Source: Candidatus Iainarchaeum sp. (GTDB lineage: Archaea; Iainarchaeota; Iainarchaeia; Iainarchaeales; SKW153). Taken from it: a DNA stretch of 64,000 nt. Shown one piece after another: positions 5,082 to 52,310 of the stretch (the first letter of the stretch is position 1; the number at the start of each line of letters is the position of its first letter). Below the pieces are notes generated by a model. It did no database searches and had not been told where the DNA came from. It saw only the letters and a list, made by a program, of their open reading frames with translations. The stretch spans positions 167,687-231,686 of the forward strand of contig JAOAJD010000001.1 in the NCBI GenBank assembly GCA_026414365.1, written 5' to 3'. The position numbers were made by a program, and so were the translations under genes.

Positions 5082-5152
5082 GCTGGAGTGGCAGAACGGC
5101 CATGCACTCGCCTGCAGAGCGAGCAAAGGGAGTTCGACTCTCTCCTCCAGCT
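5082..5152 (+). tRNA. tRNA-Cys (anticodon GCA)
   Basis: Cloverleaf folds by eye: acceptor GCTGGAG/CTCCAGC, anticodon stem CTCGC/GCGAG with loop CTGCAGA (GCA at 5114-5116), T-arm GGGAG-TTCGACT-CTCTC, 3-bp D-stem; no CCA encoded. Confidence 0.8.
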
Positions 5153-5153
5153 T

Positions 5154-5615
5154 ATGCAAATAAAACAAAAACCTAGGAAACCAGTAGAACAAATAAATAA
5201 AACTTTGGGAAATGTAGTAATAAAAAAAACAGCTTCTAAAGTTGGTGAAGAGTTATATAAAAGTATTAGAAATATAAAAAGTGAAGTAATAAAAGAGAGA
5301 GAATATATCCCTGAAAAAAAGTCATATGAATTATGGAAACATGAAGCGATAGACAGCTTACTTAAATACGAAGATGTATACGCAAAAAGATTGGGACTTA
5401 CACAGGAAGAGATTAGAATTAGGAAACAAATAATAGAGACACTCAGAAAAATAAACAATTGGGACGAATTTTGGAGATTTTTACAAGAGAACGGAATAAA
5501 AAAAGAGATATATGATAAAATTTTTCATTTAGAAGAAAGAAAACAAATATATGCTATATTCCATCCTAATGAAATTGTTGATGCAAAGAGAATGGAACTG
5601 AGGACTCCAAAATGA
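5154..5615 (+). CDS. hypothetical protein (basic, helical)
   Basis: ORF trimmed to first ATG after the tRNA (the 5088 start in the ORF track overlaps the tRNA); no recognisable motifs. Confidence 0.3.
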   Translation: MQIKQKPRKPVEQINKTLGNVVIKKTASKVGEELYKSIRNIKSEVIKEREYIPEKKSYELWKHEAIDSLLKYEDVYAKRLGLTQEEIRIRKQIIETLRKINNWDEFWRFLQENGIKKEIYDKIFHLEERKQIYAIFHPNEIVDAKRMELRTPK

Positions 5616-38520: not shown

Positions 38521-39318
38521 GTGAAGGCATTGAGAAAAATCTTTTTTTTATTTATCCTATTTATTTCTTTTGTAATTTTCTCCCATAGTGTTATCTTAGA
38601 GAAGTTAGAAATAGAAGTAGAAGTGAACAAAGAAGGATATGCAACAGTAAAAGAGACTTATAAGATATCTTTTACGAATAGTTATGACGAATATAATTTT
38701 AATCAGATAAAAACAAAAAATGGATCTTCTTTAACTATGTGGAGTTTAGATTATAACTGGCTCTCCCCTAAATTTGGGAACTTAGCAGGACAAGAAATGC
38801 CAATAAGTAAATCAAATATGACTTTTGAAGAAAAGGAGAATAAAATAATAGTAAATTACGAACTATCAAAGCCAATTGCTTTCATTATGGAAAACAAACC
38901 AAGGGTATCGAATTGGCGTATTTATGATTCCTTCTTTCAAAAATTTATAAAAAACGATCTAATAAATATACCGCAAAACACAGTAGTTAATATAATATTG
39001 CCCAAAGAAGCATATATTGATAAAGATATTCTAACAAAGCAAGCAGTAGTGAATGAAAACATAATAACACTAACAGGAATTTCAACAAATTATATAAACA
39101 TAAGATATGAGATAAAGAAACCCATAGGAAGTTCTAACAGTATGATAGAAAATTTCTTGAGAAATACAACAATAGGTAACTTAATAATAATCCTATCTTT
39201 AATAACATTACTACTAATCTTTGTCTTTAGAAAGAGAATCAAAGAAAAGATAGAAAATTATATCGTAGAGCATACAGAATTTGAAATAAAAGAAATAGAA
39301 GAAGAAGTAGAAGCTTAA
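38521..39318 (+). CDS. hypothetical secreted protein with C-terminal membrane anchor
   Basis: N-terminal signal/TM (IFFLFILFISFVIF), C-terminal TM (IGNLIIILSLITLLLIFVF) then charged tail. Confidence 0.3.
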   Translation: MKALRKIFFLFILFISFVIFSHSVILEKLEIEVEVNKEGYATVKETYKISFTNSYDEYNFNQIKTKNGSSLTMWSLDYNWLSPKFGNLAGQEMPISKSNMTFEEKENKIIVNYELSKPIAFIMENKPRVSNWRIYDSFFQKFIKNDLINIPQNTVVNIILPKEAYIDKDILTKQAVVNENIITLTGISTNYINIRYEIKKPIGSSNSMIENFLRNTTIGNLIIILSLITLLLIFVFRKRIKEKIENYIVEHTEFEIKEIEEEVEA

Positions 39319-39743
39319 TCTTCTTGTGTTTTCTTTTTAAAGATTATTATTTTTTTTATTTCTGGATAAATCGCAGAGTTAAAAGGTATTTTAGAATAAG
39401 CTAGAACGTTTTGTATACTATAATCGTCAGTGATAACTAAGAAATTCTTATTCTTTTTTATAAAATCTAAAGCTAGAGCAACAACACTCAAATCCGCTTC
39501 AGAGATGGCGGTGTTAATTTCAGAAGCTTTCTTTTTGGCTTCAACTAATGATTTCTTTGAAGGAACTCTAATTTTTAATGTTTTGTTTTTTAGTGCATTA
39601 TCCACCAAAAGTTTACTTCTAAAATCCTTAAGTTCTAAAATTGTATTAGGAGTCATATAATAAGAAAATTCTTCAGAGAAAACAAAACTCTGACTGTTTA
39701 TTATTGCAGATGCATCTAATATCAAACAAAGTTTTCTTTTCAT
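39315..39743 (-). CDS. PIN-domain protein
   Basis: N-terminal LILDASAIIN (first conserved Asp of PIN), ~142 aa. Confidence 0.45.
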   Translation of the reverse strand: MKRKLCLILDASAIINSQSFVFSEEFSYYMTPNTILELKDFRSKLLVDNALKNKTLKIRVPSKKSLVEAKKKASEINTAISEADLSVVALALDFIKKNKNFLVITDDYSIQNVLAYSKIPFNSAIYPEIKKIIIFKKKTQED

Positions 39744-39824: not shown

Positions 39825-41288
39825 ATGCAAGATATTGAAATAATTGCAAAAGAACTCAGTGAGATTGAAAGAAAAACAATTTTTGTTTTAGATAAAGATG
39901 TTTATAAAAATGTTGAAAATGTTGCAAAAGAAGCAAAGATTGACAATGACTCTGCAAGAAGAGCATTCGAATGGCTTGTATCAAAAAATCTTGTAGAATT
40001 GTCAATAAAAGAATACGAAAAGATTAGAACAACTGCTGCAGGAAACTCATCTATATCAAAAGGTCTGCCAGAAAGAATATTTATTGAGAAATTATTAGAA
40101 TTGGGTGGCAAAGCAGAGTTGGGAGAGTTAAAAAGAAAATCGTTATTGAATGAACCAGAATTTAATGCTGCAATGGGAATTGCTAAAAGAAATGCTTGGA
40201 TATCTGTTAGAAGGGAACAAGATAAAACAATGATTGAACTTACAGGTTTAGAGAATGAACTTTTAGAAGGTAAATATTATATCGAAAATGCGTTGTTAGA
40301 AATAAAAAATGGCAAAGAAGCAAATCAAAATATTTTAGAAGAACTTATTAGGAGGGGCCTTGTAGAAAAAGTAAAAATAATTGAAAAAGCAATAAAACTT
40401 AATGAAAACGGAGAAAGAGCAAGAGAAATTATATTGAAAACGAAAACAAGAAGCTTTGATGTTAGAGCAAAAGCACCTACAATCTATATAGGAAAGAAAC
40501 AGCCATATGTGCAATTTTTACTCAAAATAAGGAGAAAACTTGTAGAGCTTGGTTTTAAAGAGATGGATGCCCCATTAATAACACAAGAATTTTACAACTT
40601 TGATGTTTTGTTCCAACCACAGAATCATCCAGCTAGGTCTTGGACAGATACTTATCAATTGAAAAAACCTACAGCTGGGAAATTACCTAATTATAAAATA
40701 GTTAAAGCAGTCAAAGAAGCTCACGAAAATGGTGGCAATAGTGGTTCTAGAGGATGGGGTTACAAATGGGATGAAGAAATCGCAAAAAAATTGATGCCAT
40801 CTGCCCATGGCACTGCACACTCTGCAAGACAGTTGGTAAAAGGCATAGAAGTTCCTGGAAAATATTTCGCAATAGCAAGATGTTATAGACCTGATGTGAT
40901 GGATGCTTCACACCTAATCGAATTTAACCAATTAGAGGGTTTTATCGTTGGGGAGGAACTGAACTTTAGACATCTATTAGGAATGTTAAAAAGCTTTGCT
41001 ATAGAAATAGCAGGAGCTGAAAAAGTGAAATTCTATCCTGATTATTATCCTTTCACTGAACCATCAGTACAACTTTCTGCATACAACAAAGAATTAGGAT
41101 GGATCGAATTTGCAGGTGCAGGAATATTTAGACCAGAAATGATGAATGCATTAGGAATAAAGGAAACGGCAATAGCATGGGGCTTAGGAATAGATAGGCT
41201 GGCAATGTTTGCATTAAATATAAAAGATATGAGAAATTTGTTTTCACAAGACTTAAATTGGTTAAGAAATTCTAAGATGATAAAATGA
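39825..41288 (+). CDS. pheS: phenylalanine--tRNA ligase alpha subunit
   Basis: Class II aaRS motifs (FNQLEGFIVGE, FYPDYYPFTEPS, GAGIFRPEM), archaeal N-terminal wH domains. Confidence 0.9.
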   Translation: MQDIEIIAKELSEIERKTIFVLDKDVYKNVENVAKEAKIDNDSARRAFEWLVSKNLVELSIKEYEKIRTTAAGNSSISKGLPERIFIEKLLELGGKAELGELKRKSLLNEPEFNAAMGIAKRNAWISVRREQDKTMIELTGLENELLEGKYYIENALLEIKNGKEANQNILEELIRRGLVEKVKIIEKAIKLNENGERAREIILKTKTRSFDVRAKAPTIYIGKKQPYVQFLLKIRRKLVELGFKEMDAPLITQEFYNFDVLFQPQNHPARSWTDTYQLKKPTAGKLPNYKIVKAVKEAHENGGNSGSRGWGYKWDEEIAKKLMPSAHGTAHSARQLVKGIEVPGKYFAIARCYRPDVMDASHLIEFNQLEGFIVGEELNFRHLLGMLKSFAIEIAGAEKVKFYPDYYPFTEPSVQLSAYNKELGWIEFAGAGIFRPEMMNALGIKETAIAWGLGIDRLAMFALNIKDMRNLFSQDLNWLRNSKMIK

Positions 41289-41746
41289 AAATACCAAAGA
41301 AAAATAGGAATAAAATCAAAGCAGAGAGAGCAATAATGAGAGAATTGGCAAGAACAGGAATACTTAACAAATATGAGATAATGAAAAGAAAGAATGACTT
41401 CATTAACTATGGTAATGTGAGTATTAAATTAATTAAAAAGGCATATAGACCATCATCTAGAGAAATAAAACCTGAAAATTGTACTGAAAAAGAATTTTTT
41501 GAAAAGCTTGAGTCCATAAAAGAAAAAAATGAAAAACTTTACAATAAATACATAGGTCTTCTAACAGAAAGAGCTCATGATAGAAAAACATTCGAGACCT
41601 ATCACATATATTTGCCAAGAGGTGTTAAAAAGAAAGATAAAAGAAAAGAACATGATATTTATCTGGCTTTAAGAAGAGGTTACAAAGGGAAAATGCCAAC
41701 AAATACTAATACAGAGGGTGATAAAGATGGCAGCAAAAAAGATTAA
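41285..41746 (+). CDS. small basic protein, first gene of the pheS-pheT island (translationally coupled to pheS via ATGA)
   Basis: 153 aa, K/R-rich; weak resemblance to family B (KEKN... region); no known motif. Confidence 0.4.
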   Translation: MKIPKKNRNKIKAERAIMRELARTGILNKYEIMKRKNDFINYGNVSIKLIKKAYRPSSREIKPENCTEKEFFEKLESIKEKNEKLYNKYIGLLTERAHDRKTFETYHIYLPRGVKKKDKRKEHDIYLALRRGYKGKMPTNTNTEGDKDGSKKD

Positions 41747-41927
41747 TAAAAAAATGAATAAGTTGATAAAGGTAACTGCTAGAGAATTGGCTAGGATGCC
41801 ACATGTAGGAGCTAGATCAACATATTATCAAGCAAAAGCAATAGCAGAAAGTGGAAAACCTCTAGGGGACCGAGAAAAAAGAGCACTAAGACAAAAAAAA
41901 GGGTTTATAGACATAACAGAAATCTAG
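41718..41927 (+). CDS. small basic protein, family A (short form, divergent member); RHH-like pattern
   Basis: MIKMAAKK...KVTARELARMP...ARSTYYQAKAIAE parallels MIKMSAKK...RTVSKEF... of 43757. Confidence 0.4.
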   Translation: MIKMAAKKINKKMNKLIKVTARELARMPHVGARSTYYQAKAIAESGKPLGDREKRALRQKKGFIDITEI

Positions 41928-42106
41928 ATATATATAGTTAAAAGTTTTTTAATGTTGGAATAACGCGAGAATTGAAAAAACAAACAGAATTTATAAATAA
42001 ACAATAGAATGTTCTAAACAAAGAGACATGAAAACAACCTTTTTTAATAAAACGTAATAATTGATATATTAAAATACAAAAAAATAAAAAAAAAGGAGGA
42101 ATTGAA

Positions 42107-42337
42107 ATGCCAACAAAAAAAACACCACCAGCAAAAAGGACTGTGAGCAAAGAGTTTATGAAGATAGCTAAAGAATATGGGAGGATCCCTTCAGTCCAAA
42201 AAATGCCACCGAGTGCTAGACGCATTGTTAGTGGAGACATAAAATATATGTTAATTACAAAACGAGAATTAGCCCCTGAAGAGAAAAGATTAATTAGAAA
42301 ATTGAGGAGTCAATCAGAGGGAAATAAATCAAAATAA
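42107..42337 (+). CDS. small basic protein, family A (short form); RHH-like pattern
   Basis: PAKRTVSKEFMKIAKEYGRIP...ARRIVSGDIKYML...ELAPEEKRLIRKL; strong SD (AGGAGG) 8 nt upstream. Confidence 0.5.
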   Translation: MPTKKTPPAKRTVSKEFMKIAKEYGRIPSVQKMPPSARRIVSGDIKYMLITKRELAPEEKRLIRKLRSQSEGNKSK

Positions 42338-42635
42338 ACACTAATCTAACAAAAAACAAAAAATTAGTATTGTGACCTATTTAGTAAAAATTAAAGAGTG
42401 TAAGAGGCAATATGGAAAAGAGTAGAGATGCTCTGAAGGTTATGGCTTTTATTTAAATAAACAAAAAATACAGAGATTAAAATTAATAATTTTAGCAACA
42501 AGAGGATAAGTAGAATGTTATATAAAAGATTGAAATGACATTGAATAAGAAAATAATAAAAATGAAATCTGTTTTAAATAAGAATAGCAGAATTATTATA
42601 TAATGATTAAGAATATAATTAGTATATAACGATTA

Positions 42636-43106
42636 ATGATATACAAATTTAATGTTTTAAAGGGGATGTGTTTGGGTGTTAAAAAAACGCCAAAATCAGT
42701 TAGAAAAGAAAGCTTGTTAGTAAGAAGGAATTTGAGGGAGCTAACAAGAAATCCAGAGTATACTAAAGAAGAGATAAAAAAAATGTTGGAAATGCTAAAA
42801 GAAAAGAATAGAGAATTACCAAAAGTGATGAAACAGAACTTACGTAAAAAATATAGAGAATCTCTACAAAAGTCAGCTGACGATAAAAGGCTTTTCGATA
42901 GATATATGGAAAAAATGGCAAAATATAATTATAAAAATCCGAGATTAAGAAAGGCTTTTCTAAATATGATGAACAGGAGAAAACTTGAAAACAAAATAAA
43001 TCAAATCAGGGATTCTAATATTAAGAGAGAAGAGAAAATAGAACAAGAAAAACTCTATAGGAAATTAAAGGATTTTAGTCATGTTGATAATTTTGATTTT
43101 GAATAA
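42636..43106 (+). CDS. small basic protein, family B (probable true start ATG 42666)
   Basis: KTPKSVRKESLLVRRN ... MEKMAKYNYKNPRLRKAF shared with 44180 (51-nt identical DNA segment). Confidence 0.5.
   Translation: MIYKFNVLKGMCLGVKKTPKSVRKESLLVRRNLRELTRNPEYTKEEIKKMLEMLKEKNRELPKVMKQNLRKKYRESLQKSADDKRLFDRYMEKMAKYNYKNPRLRKAFLNMMNRRKLENKINQIRDSNIKREEKIEQEKLYRKLKDFSHVDNFDFE
42909..42959 (+). repeat. 51-nt perfect direct repeat (copy 1) inside family-B genes
   Basis: gaaaaaatggcaaaatataattataaaaatccgagattaagaaaggctttt identical at 42909-42959 and 44415-44465. Confidence 0.8.
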
Positions 43107-43113
43107 GAGATGA

Positions 43114-43182
43114 TAAAATGTCTGCAAAAAAACCTATTAAGAAAATGCAACCTGCTAAAAGGACTGTGAGTAAAGAGTTTAT
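43114..43182 (+). repeat. 69-nt perfect direct repeat (copy 1) spanning RBS and 5' end of family-A genes
   Basis: taaaatgtctgcaaaaaaacctattaagaaaatgcaacctgctaaaaggactgtgagtaaagagtttat identical at 43114-43182 and 43762-43830. Confidence 0.8.
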
Positions 43183-43609
43183 GAAGATAGCTAGAGAATA
43201 TGGGACAATTCCTATAGAGCGCAGATCACAGATTATCAAAAAAATTAGAGAGATGGCGAAAGAAGGTAGAGAATTATCTAGTGAACAAAAAGCAGAGCTA
43301 AGGGAAGAAAGACGAAGTATAGATCCTGTAAGTGCATCTTTTCCAATTAAAGTTATGCCAAGAGTGATAAAAATCATACAAAAAGATGTTAGTGCTGCGA
43401 CACAAATGGATGAAATGCTGCTAAACAGAATTAAGAATACTAAAGAATACTTTGAAAGATATAGGTATCAGAAGAGAGGCGAAAATAAAAGTCAGATACG
43501 GAAAAGGGAAGATAAAAAGAGAAAAGAAAAAAGATTTGAAGATTTTTTGAAATTAGCTATAAAAAGACAAAAAAAGACCTTGATTAATAAGTTTGCAGGT
43601 ACGAATTAA
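43118..43609 (+). CDS. small basic protein, family A (long form with C-terminal extension)
   Basis: N-terminal 21 aa identical to 43757 product (69-nt perfect DNA repeat); C-half MLLNRIKNTKEYFERY... shared with 44628. Confidence 0.5.
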   Translation: MSAKKPIKKMQPAKRTVSKEFMKIAREYGTIPIERRSQIIKKIREMAKEGRELSSEQKAELREERRSIDPVSASFPIKVMPRVIKIIQKDVSAATQMDEMLLNRIKNTKEYFERYRYQKRGENKSQIRKREDKKRKEKRFEDFLKLAIKRQKKTLINKFAGTN

Positions 43610-43756
43610 ATAATGTTTTTGTAAAGACTGGGGGATAAAAGAGAATAAAATATAGAAATAGTTTATTTGCTAAAGTATTGTCAGATAATAAAGGATAATG
43701 CTTTTTATAATGCTTACTTAAGAATAATAAAGGGACATATTTGAACATTTAAGAAG

Positions 43757-43984
43757 ATGATTAAAATGTCTGCAAAAAAACCTATTAAGAAAATGCAACC
43801 TGCTAAAAGGACTGTGAGTAAAGAGTTTATAAGAACGGCCAAAGAAATTGCAAGACTGCCAGAGATTAAAGGATCAAGTTTATCTTCTAGGAAAGCTTTA
43901 ACTGATAGTATAAAAAATATGTTGGCACAGAGAGGAGAATTGACTCCTGAGGAAAAAAGATTATTAAGAAAATTAAACCACTAA
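43757..43984 (+). CDS. small basic protein, family A (short form)
   Basis: MIKMSAKKPIKKMQPAKRTVSKEF...ELTPEEKRLLRKL, paralog of 42107. Confidence 0.5.
   Translation: MIKMSAKKPIKKMQPAKRTVSKEFIRTAKEIARLPEIKGSSLSSRKALTDSIKNMLAQRGELTPEEKRLLRKLNH
43762..43830 (+). repeat. 69-nt perfect direct repeat (copy 2)
   Basis: Identical to 43114-43182. Confidence 0.8.
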
Positions 43985-44179
43985 TAAATAGAGTCTTAAC
44001 TAAGCATGGTTTACAAAAAGTGACCAAATTTAAATAGGGATTTATACAAAATATATGCAGCACAAAAAAATGTCTTAACTGTTTAATAAACATATTATTA
44101 TAAGCTAAAGTACATTATAAGAAAGATTAAATAGAACAAAAAAGTTAGATATTTAGATTTGAAAGGGTGAAGATATAGA

Positions 44180-44593
44180 ATGGTTTGGAAAACGCCAAAA
44201 TCAGCTAGAAAGGAAAGTCTGTTAGTCAGAAAAAACATAGGAGAATTATCAAGAAATCCAACATTTACTAAAAAAAATTTAGAAAACTTGTACAAAATTA
44301 TCAGAGACACTGGAATAGAATTATTATCAGATAAAGGTAAGAAAGCTTTGAGGAGAGAATCTAAGAAAGCGATATCACTCCAAAACGAAGAGAGCGTACT
44401 TATTGATAGATTTTTTGAAAAAATGGCAAAATATAATTATAAAAATCCGAGATTAAGAAAGGCTTTTATTAAAATGATGCTTAGGAGAGAGATCGAAAAT
44501 GAAATAAATAAGTGTAGACAATCAAATATTAAAAAGGAAGAGAAGAGGAAGAGAGAAGAAGAACTTAGGAAGTTGAAAGAAAGCATTGTATAA
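44180..44593 (+). CDS. small basic protein, family B
   Basis: MVWKTPKSARKESLLVRKN...MAKYNYKNPRLRKAF...; paralog of 42636. Confidence 0.5.
   Translation: MVWKTPKSARKESLLVRKNIGELSRNPTFTKKNLENLYKIIRDTGIELLSDKGKKALRRESKKAISLQNEESVLIDRFFEKMAKYNYKNPRLRKAFIKMMLRREIENEINKCRQSNIKKEEKRKREEELRKLKESIV
44415..44465 (+). repeat. 51-nt perfect direct repeat (copy 2) inside family-B genes
   Basis: Identical to 42909-42959. Confidence 0.8.
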
Positions 44594-44627
44594 ACAATGA
44601 AAATAAAGAAAATATCATAAAAGAGGG

Positions 44628-45116
44628 GTGGTAAAAATGTTGAAAAAAAGGATGGAACCAGCACAGAGGACTGTAAGTAAGGAATTTATGAGAATAGCTA
44701 AAGAAACTGGCAGAATTCCTATGGAATATAGACCACAAATAATTAAAAAAATCAAAGAGATGGCAGAAAGGAAAGAAAATTTAACTGTTGGACAAAAAAA
44801 ATTTCTTAGAAAAATGGGTCGCCAGTTATCTTTAAGTGCATACATTTCCCCTGCTGTTATGCCAAAAGTAGAAAAAATTTTAAGTAGAGGTGATAAAAAT
44901 TCAGCAAAGTTGGCAGCAATGTTACTTACTAGGATTAAAAATGCTCGAGAATATTTTGAAAGATATAACTTTTCAGGAAGGGGTGTAACTAAAGCGCAAA
45001 TAAGAAAAATGGAAGACGAAGAGAGAAAAATGGAAAGATTTTTAGATTTCTTAGAGTTAACTGAGAAAAAACAAGGAAAGAACATAATAAAAGGAGGATT
45101 CACAAGTAAAAATTAA
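44628..45116 (+). CDS. small basic protein, family A (long form)
   Basis: PAQRTVSKEFMRIAKETGRIP...MLLTRIKNAREYFERYNF...; paralog of 43118. Confidence 0.5.
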   Translation: MVKMLKKRMEPAQRTVSKEFMRIAKETGRIPMEYRPQIIKKIKEMAERKENLTVGQKKFLRKMGRQLSLSAYISPAVMPKVEKILSRGDKNSAKLAAMLLTRIKNAREYFERYNFSGRGVTKAQIRKMEDEERKMERFLDFLELTEKKQGKNIIKGGFTSKN

Positions 45117-45314
45117 CTATTTTTCTAATGAAGTACCTAAGAAAAAGTTTATTTATGGGAATATGGAAAAAAATAATTTTGGAAAAATTCAAAAAATATA
45201 ATATAAATAATTATAAGATATGGTAACATGACTTTTCTGAGTAGAGGTTAAAAAGATAATTAGATTATCTTCTTTAAAGAAACCTACCTTAAATAAGGAA
45301 TGAGAGGAAGCCAA

Positions 45315-46973
45315 ATGCCAAAACTGGAAATAAGTAAAAAAGATTTAGAAATACTTGTAGGGAAAAAATTTAAGGATATGGAAGAATTAGAAGAAGTTCT
45401 CATGTATGCCAAAGTAGAACTAGACGGCCAGGAGAATGACAAACTATTTTTAGATGCAAAAGACACAAACAGACCTGATCTTTGGAGCGCGGAGGGTATT
45501 GCAAGACAATTAAAAGCCTCTTTGGGCTTAAAAAAAGGTTTACCAAAATATGATGTCAGAAAATCAAATCTAAAAGTTAAAATAGAGGCTAGTGTTAAAG
45601 ATGTTAGACCATTAACATATTGTGCAATAATAAAAGATGTCAAAATTACTGAAGAATCTCTAATACAAATGATTCAATTGCAAGAAAAAGTTGCAATGAC
45701 TTTTGGTAGAAAAAGAAAAGAAGCGGCGATAGGTATTTATGATTATGATAAAATAAAAGGAAACATAAGATTTTATGGTGCTGATCCAAAAACAAAAAAA
45801 TTTGTTCCTCTAGAATTTAAAGAGGAACTTACTTTAGAAGAAATTTTAGAGCTGCATCCAAAAGGCATAGAATATGGGCATTTGCTTAAAGGTAAAGAAG
45901 TTTATCCAATATTTGAGGACTCCGAAGGCAATGTACTTTCAATGCCACCAATAATTAACTCTAATTATAGCGGCAAAGTTACAGAGGAAACTAAAAATCT
46001 TTTTATAGAAGTTAGTGGATTCAAAGAAGAGACTATCTCAACTGCTTTAAATGTCTTAGTAACTGCATTTGCAGATAGAGGTGGCAAAATATTCTCGGTG
46101 AAGGTTATTGATTCAAACGGAAAAGAAAGATGGACTCCAGATTTAAGACCTAAAAAAATTGAGATTGAGATAGATGATATAAAAAAACTTAGTGGGTTAA
46201 ATCTAAAAAATAAAGAAATCTTAGAATTGTTAAAGAAAATGTGTTATGATGTAAATATAAAGGGAAACAAGATTTTCTGCGAATACCCTGCATACAGAAA
46301 TGATATATTACATCATGTTGATGTAATTGAAGATGTGATAATTGCGTACGGTTACAATAAAATAGAGCCTGAAAAATTAAACATTCCAATAATTGGCTAC
46401 GAAAAAGAAGAAACTAGATATATTGATACTGTAAGAGAAGTTTGCATAGGATTGAAACTACAAGAAGTTCTAACATTTACATTGACGTCAAAAGCGAAGC
46501 AGAGTGATTTAGTATATGAAAACAAAGAAGACTTGGTTGAGATACTAAATCCAATCTCAGAAAATTGGTCTGTCTTCAGGAAAAACATATTTCCGGAGCT
46601 TTTAGAATTTTTAGAAAAAAATAAAAATGCTGAATACCCACAAAATATTTTTGAGATAGGAAAAACTATAAAATTGGATGAGGAGTCAGAAACCGGCGTG
46701 TGTGAAAAAGATAAGCTCTGCATAGTTCTAACAGGTAGAGATTATAACTATACAAAGATAAAATCTTTCTTTGATGCAATAAACGAAAATTTAGACTTAA
46801 ATCTTAATATAAGCGAAGGCGAAATAAAATTTTTAGAAAGTGGAAAGAGCGCTTATATAATGAAAGGAGATAAAAAGATTGGTTTTATTGGAGAATTAAA
46901 CAAGAACGTATTAAAAAAATTTAAATTAAAGTTTCCTGTAGTTTTATTAGAATTCGAGTTGGTTGTTAAATAA
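45315..46973 (+). CDS. pheT: phenylalanine--tRNA ligase beta subunit
   Basis: Archaeal PheT architecture (B3/4-like, B5, catalytic-like domain), ~552 aa; start chosen at MPKLEISKKDL (ORF track begins 15 nt earlier). Confidence 0.85.
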   Translation: MPKLEISKKDLEILVGKKFKDMEELEEVLMYAKVELDGQENDKLFLDAKDTNRPDLWSAEGIARQLKASLGLKKGLPKYDVRKSNLKVKIEASVKDVRPLTYCAIIKDVKITEESLIQMIQLQEKVAMTFGRKRKEAAIGIYDYDKIKGNIRFYGADPKTKKFVPLEFKEELTLEEILELHPKGIEYGHLLKGKEVYPIFEDSEGNVLSMPPIINSNYSGKVTEETKNLFIEVSGFKEETISTALNVLVTAFADRGGKIFSVKVIDSNGKERWTPDLRPKKIEIEIDDIKKLSGLNLKNKEILELLKKMCYDVNIKGNKIFCEYPAYRNDILHHVDVIEDVIIAYGYNKIEPEKLNIPIIGYEKEETRYIDTVREVCIGLKLQEVLTFTLTSKAKQSDLVYENKEDLVEILNPISENWSVFRKNIFPELLEFLEKNKNAEYPQNIFEIGKTIKLDEESETGVCEKDKLCIVLTGRDYNYTKIKSFFDAINENLDLNLNISEGEIKFLESGKSAYIMKGDKKIGFIGELNKNVLKKFKLKFPVVLLEFELVVK

Positions 46974-51185: not shown

Positions 51186-52310
51186 ATGAAGGACATATTT
51201 AGAATAAACCATGCAGAAATGAGCGTTTTTAAGGATGAGACTATATTATATCCTGATTATCTACCAGAAAAATTACCAGGTAGACAAAAAGAAATAGAAG
51301 AAATTGCCAGTTGTTTAAGGCCTTTATTGTTTGGAAAAATGCCAAGAAATATGTTTCTATATGGCAGTACAGGAGTTGGTAAAACAGCTTGTGTAAAGTT
51401 TGTCCTAAAAAAACTTACGGAAGAAGTAGAAAGACGATATTATGAAATTAAAAGTTTTTATATAAATTGCTTTCAAATAAACACAAAATATAGTATATTT
51501 ACTGAAATTTCTAACTATATGGGTTTTACAACACCACGAAGAGGATTATCTTGTGATGAAGTATATGCAACAATAAAAGAAGCAATTAGAAAAGTTAAAT
51601 TTTACCCTATTATAACACTAGACGAATTTGACAAAGTGTTGAACAAACAAGATGCTTCCGAGGTATTATATAATTTATCAAGAATAACAGATAGCGATAA
51701 GAAATTTTGTTTGATAATAATATCAAACGATGAATCTTTAATTTCAAGACTAGATGATAGAGCTAGGAGTTCCCTAATGCCTATCGTAATAAAATTCGAA
51801 AATTATGGACAAAAAGAATTGAAAGAAATATTGGTAGAAAGAAGTAACCTCGCATTTAAGGAAAATTGCATAGAATATGAGGCAATAGCCTTAGCTGCAG
51901 CAAAAGCTGCTAAACTTGGTGGGGATGCAAGGGTTGCAATTAATGCTATTTTAGAAGCAGGTAGAATTGCAGACCATGAGAATTCATCAAAAGTAAAGAT
52001 AGACCATGTAAAAAAAGCTTTTGAAAAAACCGAATTTGTATCAAAATTAAAAGCACTCAAGTATTTAGGCCAAAAAGAAAAGAACGTTTTAAAGATAATT
52101 TCAAGTAAAGATGGAATAACCTCTGGAGAGGTTTACGAGATTCTAGATAAGATGGATATAAAGATGAGTGAAAGATCTAAGAGATATGCCTTAGAAAAAC
52201 TAGAAAAACTCGGTTTGATAAAGACTACTAAACTACAACTGGGCAACAAAGGAAAGACAAGAAGAATATATGTAAACTTCGAAAAAGAAGCTCTCGAAAA
52301 ATATTTATAA
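51186..52310 (+). CDS. cdc6: ORC1-type DNA replication protein (Orc1/Cdc6)
   Basis: AAA+ Walker A GSTGVGKTA, Walker B LDEFD, sensor, C-terminal winged helix; 374 aa. Confidence 0.85.
   Translation: MKDIFRINHAEMSVFKDETILYPDYLPEKLPGRQKEIEEIASCLRPLLFGKMPRNMFLYGSTGVGKTACVKFVLKKLTEEVERRYYEIKSFYINCFQINTKYSIFTEISNYMGFTTPRRGLSCDEVYATIKEAIRKVKFYPIITLDEFDKVLNKQDASEVLYNLSRITDSDKKFCLIIISNDESLISRLDDRARSSLMPIVIKFENYGQKELKEILVERSNLAFKENCIEYEAIALAAAKAAKLGGDARVAINAILEAGRIADHENSSKVKIDHVKKAFEKTEFVSKLKALKYLGQKEKNVLKIISSKDGITSGEVYEILDKMDIKMSERSKRYALEKLEKLGLIKTTKLQLGNKGKTRRIYVNFEKEALEKYL

Follow-up and report, generated by a model that had tools for sequence, protein, structure and literature searches.

The stretch of DNA analyzed here, referred to below as the window, comprises 64,000 nucleotides (64 kb) from the metagenome-assembled genome (MAG) of a Candidatus Diapherotrites archaeon, within the DPANN. 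In it, pheS and pheT, the genes for the alpha and beta subunits of archaeal PheRS, are separated by an insert of 4,011 nucleotides that is filled by eight paralogous small genes, all on the plus strand. These genes are likely to constitute a lineage-specific array in which a three-gene cassette was tandemly duplicated long ago and in which short tracts were later exchanged between the copies by gene conversion. What carries this reading is that the paralogs are saturated with synonymous change over most of their length and yet share tracts of perfect or nearly perfect nucleotide identity, and that these tracts are significantly longer than the background divergence permits.

Two ancient cassettes within an eight-gene array

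The first-pass annotation had described a tandemly duplicated cassette of genes in the order A-short, B, A-long, and this order is indeed present twice. The first cassette consists of AS1 (A-short, positions 42107–42337, 76 residues, isoelectric point (pI) 10.7, with a GGAGG Shine-Dalgarno motif at 42094–42098), B1 (42672–43106, 144 residues from the TTG start chosen by NCBI, where the protein is N3D73_01195; the longest open reading frame (ORF) starts at 42636), and AL1 (A-long, 43118–43609, 163 residues, N3D73_01200). The second consists of AS2 (A-short, 43766–43984, 72 residues, or 75 from 43757 according to NCBI), which is a mosaic as described below, B2 (44180–44593, 137 residues, N3D73_01210), and AL2 (A-long, 44637–45116, 159 residues from the ATG start used in the public protein, with an alternative GTG start at 44628). 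Amino acid identity between the cassettes is 54% for AS1/AS2, 51% for B1/B2, and 52% for AL1/AL2 (E-values of 1e-19 to 1e-42). The A-short proteins are the counterparts of the N-terminal ~65 residues of the A-long proteins, with which they share 43–49% identity (48% for AS1 and the N-terminus of AL1).

A description in terms of two cassettes is incomplete, however, since two divergent members precede them. AL0 (41285–41746, plus strand, 153 residues, pI 10.0) is a long form that links subfamily A with subfamily B, with composition-controlled Smith-Waterman z-scores of 5.4 against B1, 4.8 against AL2, 4.4 against AS1, and 4.0 against B2; tblastn aligns it to B1 at E = 1e-5, and a C-terminal motif, F-E-x-Y...RG..K..RK..D, is common to AL0, AL1, and AL2. 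AS0 (41727–41927, plus strand, ~66–69 residues, alternative GTG start at 41718) is a short form with z-scores, likewise composition-controlled, of 7.7 against AS2, 6.1 against AL1, 4.7 against B1, and 4.5 against B2, and its N-terminus, MAAKKINKKM, is similar to the MSAKKPIKKM of AL1 and AS2. Because the alignment scores of AL0 and AS0 link members of A and B to each other, all eight ORFs probably belong to one superfamily.

The first-pass annotation had also entertained a recent duplication, in which case the perfect repeats would be the undiverged remnants of a young copy. The shared gene order and the local perfect identity are what such a history would leave behind, but the rest of the sequence speaks against it. 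Synonymous sites outside the repeats are saturated, with synonymous divergence (dS) between the cassette paralogs of 1.16–2.59 by the NG86 method, only about half of the amino acids are identical, and when one cassette is aligned with the other, nucleotide identity is 55–80% within the genes but close to random in the spacers, which are effectively unalignable. Moreover, the longest of the repeats joins genes that do not occupy equivalent positions in the two cassettes, an arrangement that simple cassette duplication cannot give. We regard a recent duplication as extremely improbable; with dS above 1, ~50% amino acid identity, and unalignable spacers, the cassette duplication is old.

The same comparison shows that the copies are real genes under purifying selection, since the ratio of nonsynonymous to synonymous divergence (dN/dS) between the paralogs is 0.16–0.31. 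That they might instead be chance open frames in purine-rich and AT-rich DNA could be argued from the low-complexity character of the K/E/R-rich products, from the lack of homologs, and from antisense ORFs that are equally long (e.g., 44615–45103 on the minus strand). This is barely conceivable given the low dN/dS, indels between paralogs that are multiples of three, Shine-Dalgarno motifs at the proper distance, and eight intact frames on a single strand between spacers of 20–23% GC; five of the eight ORFs are also annotated as proteins by NCBI, three of them as the N3D73 entries given above, which lie on a 522,072-bp contig. The long antisense ORFs opposite the family genes (41938–42240, 43075–43377, and 44615–45103, all on the minus strand, 100–162 residues) are most likely a side effect of purine richness on the coding strand, with GC skew and AT skew both ~+0.3, and not genes.

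The Shine-Dalgarno-like motifs upstream of the starts are GGAGG, GGGGTGG, AGGGTGA, and GATGAT. Each A-long gene follows its B gene closely, after 11 nucleotides in the first cassette and 43 in the second, and the A-short genes are flanked by AT-rich spacers of 147–334 nucleotides. This spacing suggests that the B/A-long pairs and the A-short genes are transcribed separately. A motif search found no conserved promoter or operator motif shared by the spacers; the promoter scan used a bacterial sigma-70 model, which is uninformative for an archaeon.

Short tracts of identity between diverged paralogs

Exact repeats of at least 25 nucleotides occur only twice in the whole window, and both lie in the array. 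The longer pair, 43114–43182 and 43762–43830 on the plus strand, is an exact and maximal match of 69 nucleotides, as had been reported. In its first copy it covers the 4 nucleotides before AL1 and the first 21 codons of that gene, start codon included, and in its second copy it lies in AS2, so that it joins the A-long gene of cassette 1 to the A-short gene of cassette 2. Upstream of the exact match, similarity runs on through the Shine-Dalgarno-like GATGAT motif with a 1-nucleotide indel. The boundary is abrupt: where a residue has degenerate codons, AL1 and AS2 use the same one in 19 of 19 cases within the island and in 3 of 11 beyond it. Over the same stretch, the remaining two A genes reach no more than 66–72% identity. 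A Sawyer-type permutation test on the four A 5' regions finds a run of 22 consecutive concordant polymorphic sites between AL1 and AS2 (P < 1e-4, global P < 1e-4). AS2 is accordingly a mosaic, its 5' 69 nucleotides being those of AL1 and its 3' half being nearest to AS1 (83% over 40 nucleotides).

The shorter pair lies within the B genes, at 42909–42959 in B1 and 44417–44467 in B2, both on the plus strand, and is an exact match of 51 nucleotides that encodes EKMAKYNYKNPRLRKAF; the repeat reported by the first-pass annotation is thus real, with its second copy placed 2 nucleotides too early there (44415–44465). Among conserved degenerate residues, the codons of B1 and B2 agree 22 times in succession (P = 0.0024), and if codons were drawn independently from local usage, all 17 codons of the island would coincide with P = 1.8e-4. 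Both copies have the rare codons CCG (3% of proline codons) and AAG (17% of lysine codons). A third tract, in which AS1 (42134–42182) and AL1 (43157–43205) agree at 47 of 49 nucleotides (96%), carries a run of 8 concordant polymorphic sites in the permutation test (P = 0.005). The earlier statement that only two segments are homogenized stands for exact repeats of at least 25 nucleotides but overlooks this near-identical tract, while its picture of perfect islands inside otherwise diverged paralogs agrees with the ~50% amino acid identity and the saturated dS reported above.

If the islands were instead maintained by selection, either on a conserved peptide combined with AT-biased codon usage or on an element that acts at the nucleotide level, such as a translation initiation region or the target of a regulatory RNA, no exchange between genes would be needed. 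Selection of this kind would account for the B island coinciding exactly with the most conserved peptide of the B proteins, for a baseline codon identity at conserved residues of 0.56–0.67, and for the position of the A island across the ribosome-binding site and start region. It does not account for the divergence of the other two A genes over the very same stretch or for the fall in codon identity at the island boundary from 19/19 to 3/11, and the sharing of CCG and AAG, with the P-value of 1.8e-4 under independent draws, is not what codon bias would lead one to expect. Nor do the islands show RNA structure (fold z-scores of −0.45 to +1.44) or a match in Rfam at E ≤ 1, and the spacers are without conserved motifs. 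We consider selection quite unlikely as the source of the islands, and short-tract gene conversion between neighboring paralogs, which the first-pass annotation had named as one possible cause, is the best explanation for them; conversion that is ongoing or recent is thereby supported.

The history of the array can be outlined as follows. An ancestral set of long and short genes diversified into the A-short, A-long, and B subfamilies, and a three-gene unit of A-short, B, and A-long was tandemly duplicated long ago, with all copies then retained as working genes, as their low dN/dS shows. Recent homologous recombination between neighboring paralogs, short in tract and non-reciprocal, would then have laid down the tracts of identity, and it would have included genes that are not equivalent, giving AL1 and AS2 the same ribosome-binding site and first 21 codons. 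The direct repeats are spaced at 648 bp (the 69-nucleotide pair) and 1,508 bp (the 51-nucleotide pair), and they could in turn serve unequal crossing-over, with loss or gain of AL1 in the first case and of a whole cassette in the second.

Several points weigh against this reading. The B island is the most conserved B peptide in a region of strongly biased codon usage, and ~63% of the conserved residues outside it already use the same codon, so that its significance is moderate (P of ~2e-4 to 2e-3) and weaker than that of the A island. The whole structure rests on one contig, with a single member on that contig in each protein cluster, and the nearest PheS sequences are only 62–66% identical. 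The functional part of the interpretation, taken up below, comes without a match to any family, fold, or homolog, and the structure models behind it have a pLDDT of 61–66.

Dependence on a single MAG contig also raises the prospect that the second cassette or the islands were made by the metagenome assembler, from strain variants or by jumps between repeats, and an independent assembly of the locus was not found. Copies in which around half of the residues differ and dS exceeds 1 are too far apart, though, to be strain variants of a single locus, whether collapsed or concatenated, and the ORF of every copy is intact, is preceded by a ribosome-binding site of its own, and has a dN/dS below 0.35. 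An assembler may misjoin sequences at shared k-mers but it cannot invent those k-mers, so the islands exist in the sample, and the composition of the array is uniform with that of its flanks. An assembly artifact is therefore very unlikely, and we retain old duplication followed by gene conversion.

Proteins of the array

All eight proteins are very basic (pI 10.0–10.9, lysine plus arginine 25–29%) and share an N-terminal module of ~55 residues that runs from a basic arm through a helix, an x-P turn, and a second helix to the motif G/N-x-E-L-x-x-x-x-K-x-x-L-R-K. AlphaFold2 (AF2) predicts only helices for AL1 and B1, with low confidence (pLDDT 61.5 and 65.5); at that confidence, the AL1 monomer has a coil at residues 1–16 followed by helices at 17–28 and 33–49, and the B1 monomer has a helix at 6–23, across what had been a putative strand. 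Foldseek searches of the PDB with both models returned nothing below E = 2.

Homology searches placed the family nowhere. Pfam, PHROGs, and NCBIfam gave only sub-threshold noise for all eight proteins, PADLOC assigned them 0 families, and sequence-profile searches of the PDB gave no match. A collection of 5.8 billion protein clusters, searched twice with single sequences and once with a profile, yielded only the genome's own proteins, as did 1.84 billion representatives searched in full with an HMMER profile, and among ~15 billion public proteins there is no homolog. IMG/VR and the phage and plasmid collections hold no match to the array proteins, and no orthologous array was found in any of the collections searched. 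The lack of known relatives is partly a sampling effect, since the host itself has no close relative among the GTDB representative genomes and JGI metagenome contigs searched.

By eye, the shared N-terminal module resembles the pattern of the ribbon-helix-helix family of CopG, Arc, and MetJ, with a basic arm, a short alternating KRTVS stretch, a helix that ends in glycine (KEFMKIAKEYG), an x-I-P turn, and a second helix, and the small size and basic charge of the array proteins add to the likeness. We do not assign the proteins to this family, however, and treat the likeness as no more than a pointer: hmmscan against Pfam-A finds no ribbon-helix-helix family at E ≤ 1 for any of the eight proteins, and the PDB searches found none either. 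Of the two low-confidence models, that of AL1 is compatible with a beta-alpha-alpha fold, and that of B1 disagrees with it, the putative strand being helical there. From charge, size, and helicity we tentatively predict that the array proteins bind nucleic acid, whether DNA or RNA, and would put this at somewhat less than an even chance.

A more specific scenario is that the family was born locally at the pheS-pheT junction, either de novo or by divergence past recognition, was amplified in place, and was retained by selection in a very small genome as a hitherto undescribed set of nucleic-acid-binding proteins or of accessory proteins associated with PheRS or tRNA. We hold this to be improbable. 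If it were true, then the short forms, which possess only the N-terminal module, would act together with the long forms, and by homogenizing the N-terminal basic arm, conversion would preserve a common specificity in a short form and the long form next to it.

The pheS-pheT junction in the window and in relatives

The insert is bounded on its left by pheS (39825–41288, plus strand, a 487-residue ORF) and on its right by pheT (45300–46973, plus strand, a 557-residue ORF). The start of AL0 overlaps the stop codon of pheS (ATGA), from which we tentatively predict, again at somewhat less than an even chance, that AL0 and AS0 would be co-expressed with PheRS. The encoded PheS is 35–66% identical to the PheS of DPANN and other archaea, and PheT shares 37–60% identity with the PheT encoded immediately downstream of pheS in relatives.

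PheS-anchored scans of GTDB representative genomes and JGI metagenome contigs yielded 67 loci, 50 of which hold both genes; the nearest PheS sequences in these relatives are 62–66% identical to that of the window, and none is above 66%. In 31 of these 50 loci, which belong to DPANN and other archaea, pheS and pheT abut or overlap, and in the remaining 19 they are separated by inserts of 249–1,491 nucleotides, which makes the insert in the window the largest seen. The genes in the inserts of relatives are small, unrelated to the array, and share the orientation of pheS and pheT. They encode a DUF6036-type nucleotidyltransferase paired with a small protein (locus L028, 7314–8073, and L030), a MazE/AbrB-like protein with an HTH protein (L010, 6186–6615, and L032), GNAT acetyltransferases (L016, 11631–12795), HIT proteins (L017, 11526–11924, and L018), and a LAGLIDADG-like protein (L025, 7878–9119). 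Because 19 of the 50 loci hold such unrelated small genes there, we suggest that the junction is a recurrent insertion hotspot across DPANN lineages.

In three Iainarchaeia, the junction holds a single ORF of 101–133 residues and pI 10.3–10.4 whose product is basic and looks helical (L008, 5421–5795; L009, 3305–3610, the same as L031; L014, 11447–11848). As homologs of the array family these were rejected, similarity being undetectable by hhalign, by profile hidden Markov models, and by shuffle-controlled alignment, and similarity among the three was not detected either. They could be homologs that have diverged past recognition or independent acquisitions.

The contents of these junctions invite the question of whether the array is itself a selfish or defense module, such as a toxin-antitoxin-like system or a viral or plasmid relic, that inserted between pheS and pheT and was amplified there. 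Toxin-antitoxin-like and accessory genes do occupy the junctions of relatives, as just described, the B and A-long genes are tightly paired, and the family is found nowhere else. Set against this are the lack of any match in PADLOC, PHROGs, the toxin-antitoxin families of Pfam, and the phage, plasmid, and IMG/VR collections, and the absence of an integrase or transposase among the neighbors of the array and of repeats or a tRNA flanking the insert. The composition is native, with an array GC content of 28–32% that equals that of the remaining window, the start of AL0 overlaps the end of pheS in an operon-like manner, and the eight products are alike in being basic and helical, which is unlike the pairing of a toxin with its antidote. 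An origin as a mobile module is, on balance, rather unlikely, and old duplication with later conversion remains our preferred account.

The genes that flank the region are of the housekeeping type and encode LonB, an RNase Z-like protein, a nucleotidyltransferase, a PIN protein, the RFC large subunit, a YchF-type GTPase, an endonuclease IV-like protein, and Cdc6/Orc1. The gene for the PIN-domain ribonuclease (PF17146, E = 3e-10) occupies 39315–39743 on the minus strand, directly upstream of pheS and opposite to it in orientation. Cdc6/Orc1 is encoded at 51186–52310, and the adjacent spacer may hold a replication origin. The sole tRNA gene in the 64 kb is tRNA-Cys(GCA) at 5082–5152. An ORF that starts just inside or after it (5088–5615) encodes a K/E-rich protein of ~153 residues that is probably unrelated to the array; the candidate 5154–5615 was rejected as a further family member, being weakly similar to AS2 (z = 5.5) and to no other member.

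Comparison with known systems

To our knowledge, recombination has hardly been documented in DPANN archaea, and the array offers a clean and statistically supported case of short-tract gene conversion in one of them, including conversion between paralogs that are not equivalent. The mechanism of homogenization is already known and is textbook material; what is new is the protein family, and the ~4 kb that so small a genome devotes to it suggests a function worth testing.

The closest parallel in organization is the lpl cluster of Staphylococcus aureus. Tsuru & Kobayashi (2008, PMC2568036) describe tandem paralogs in which a highly conserved nucleotide tract within variable ORFs can serve for homologous recombination, and in which the 5' part of an ORF has other nearest relatives than its 3' part. 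The likeness is twofold, in that the array also has conserved tracts inside otherwise variable tandem paralogs and in that the mosaic AS2 parallels the differently related halves of an lpl ORF. The array differs in belonging to an archaeon known from a single genome, and so comes without rearrangements between strains, and its products are small, basic, and of cytoplasmic type, whereas those of lpl are lipoproteins. In addition, one of its tracts lies at the extreme 5' end of the gene and includes the ribosome-binding site, and the exchange has taken place between long and short gene forms.

More generally, non-reciprocal recombination can maintain partial identity between paralogs of one prokaryotic genome, as set out in a phylogenomic survey of concerted evolution and gene conversion (PMC6053082). 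In the array, by contrast, homogenization is confined to patches of 50–70 nucleotides and everything else is saturated, a pattern of sporadic short-tract events and not of long-lasting concerted evolution over whole genes.

The genes found at the same chromosomal position in other DPANN archaea resemble the array in being small and in running in the same direction as the two flanking genes, but they are unrelated to it in sequence, and they come as one or two genes where the window has an array of eight paralogs. Seen together with them, the pheS-pheT pair, which is normally contiguous, appears as a place where small accessory genes have inserted repeatedly in different DPANN lineages.

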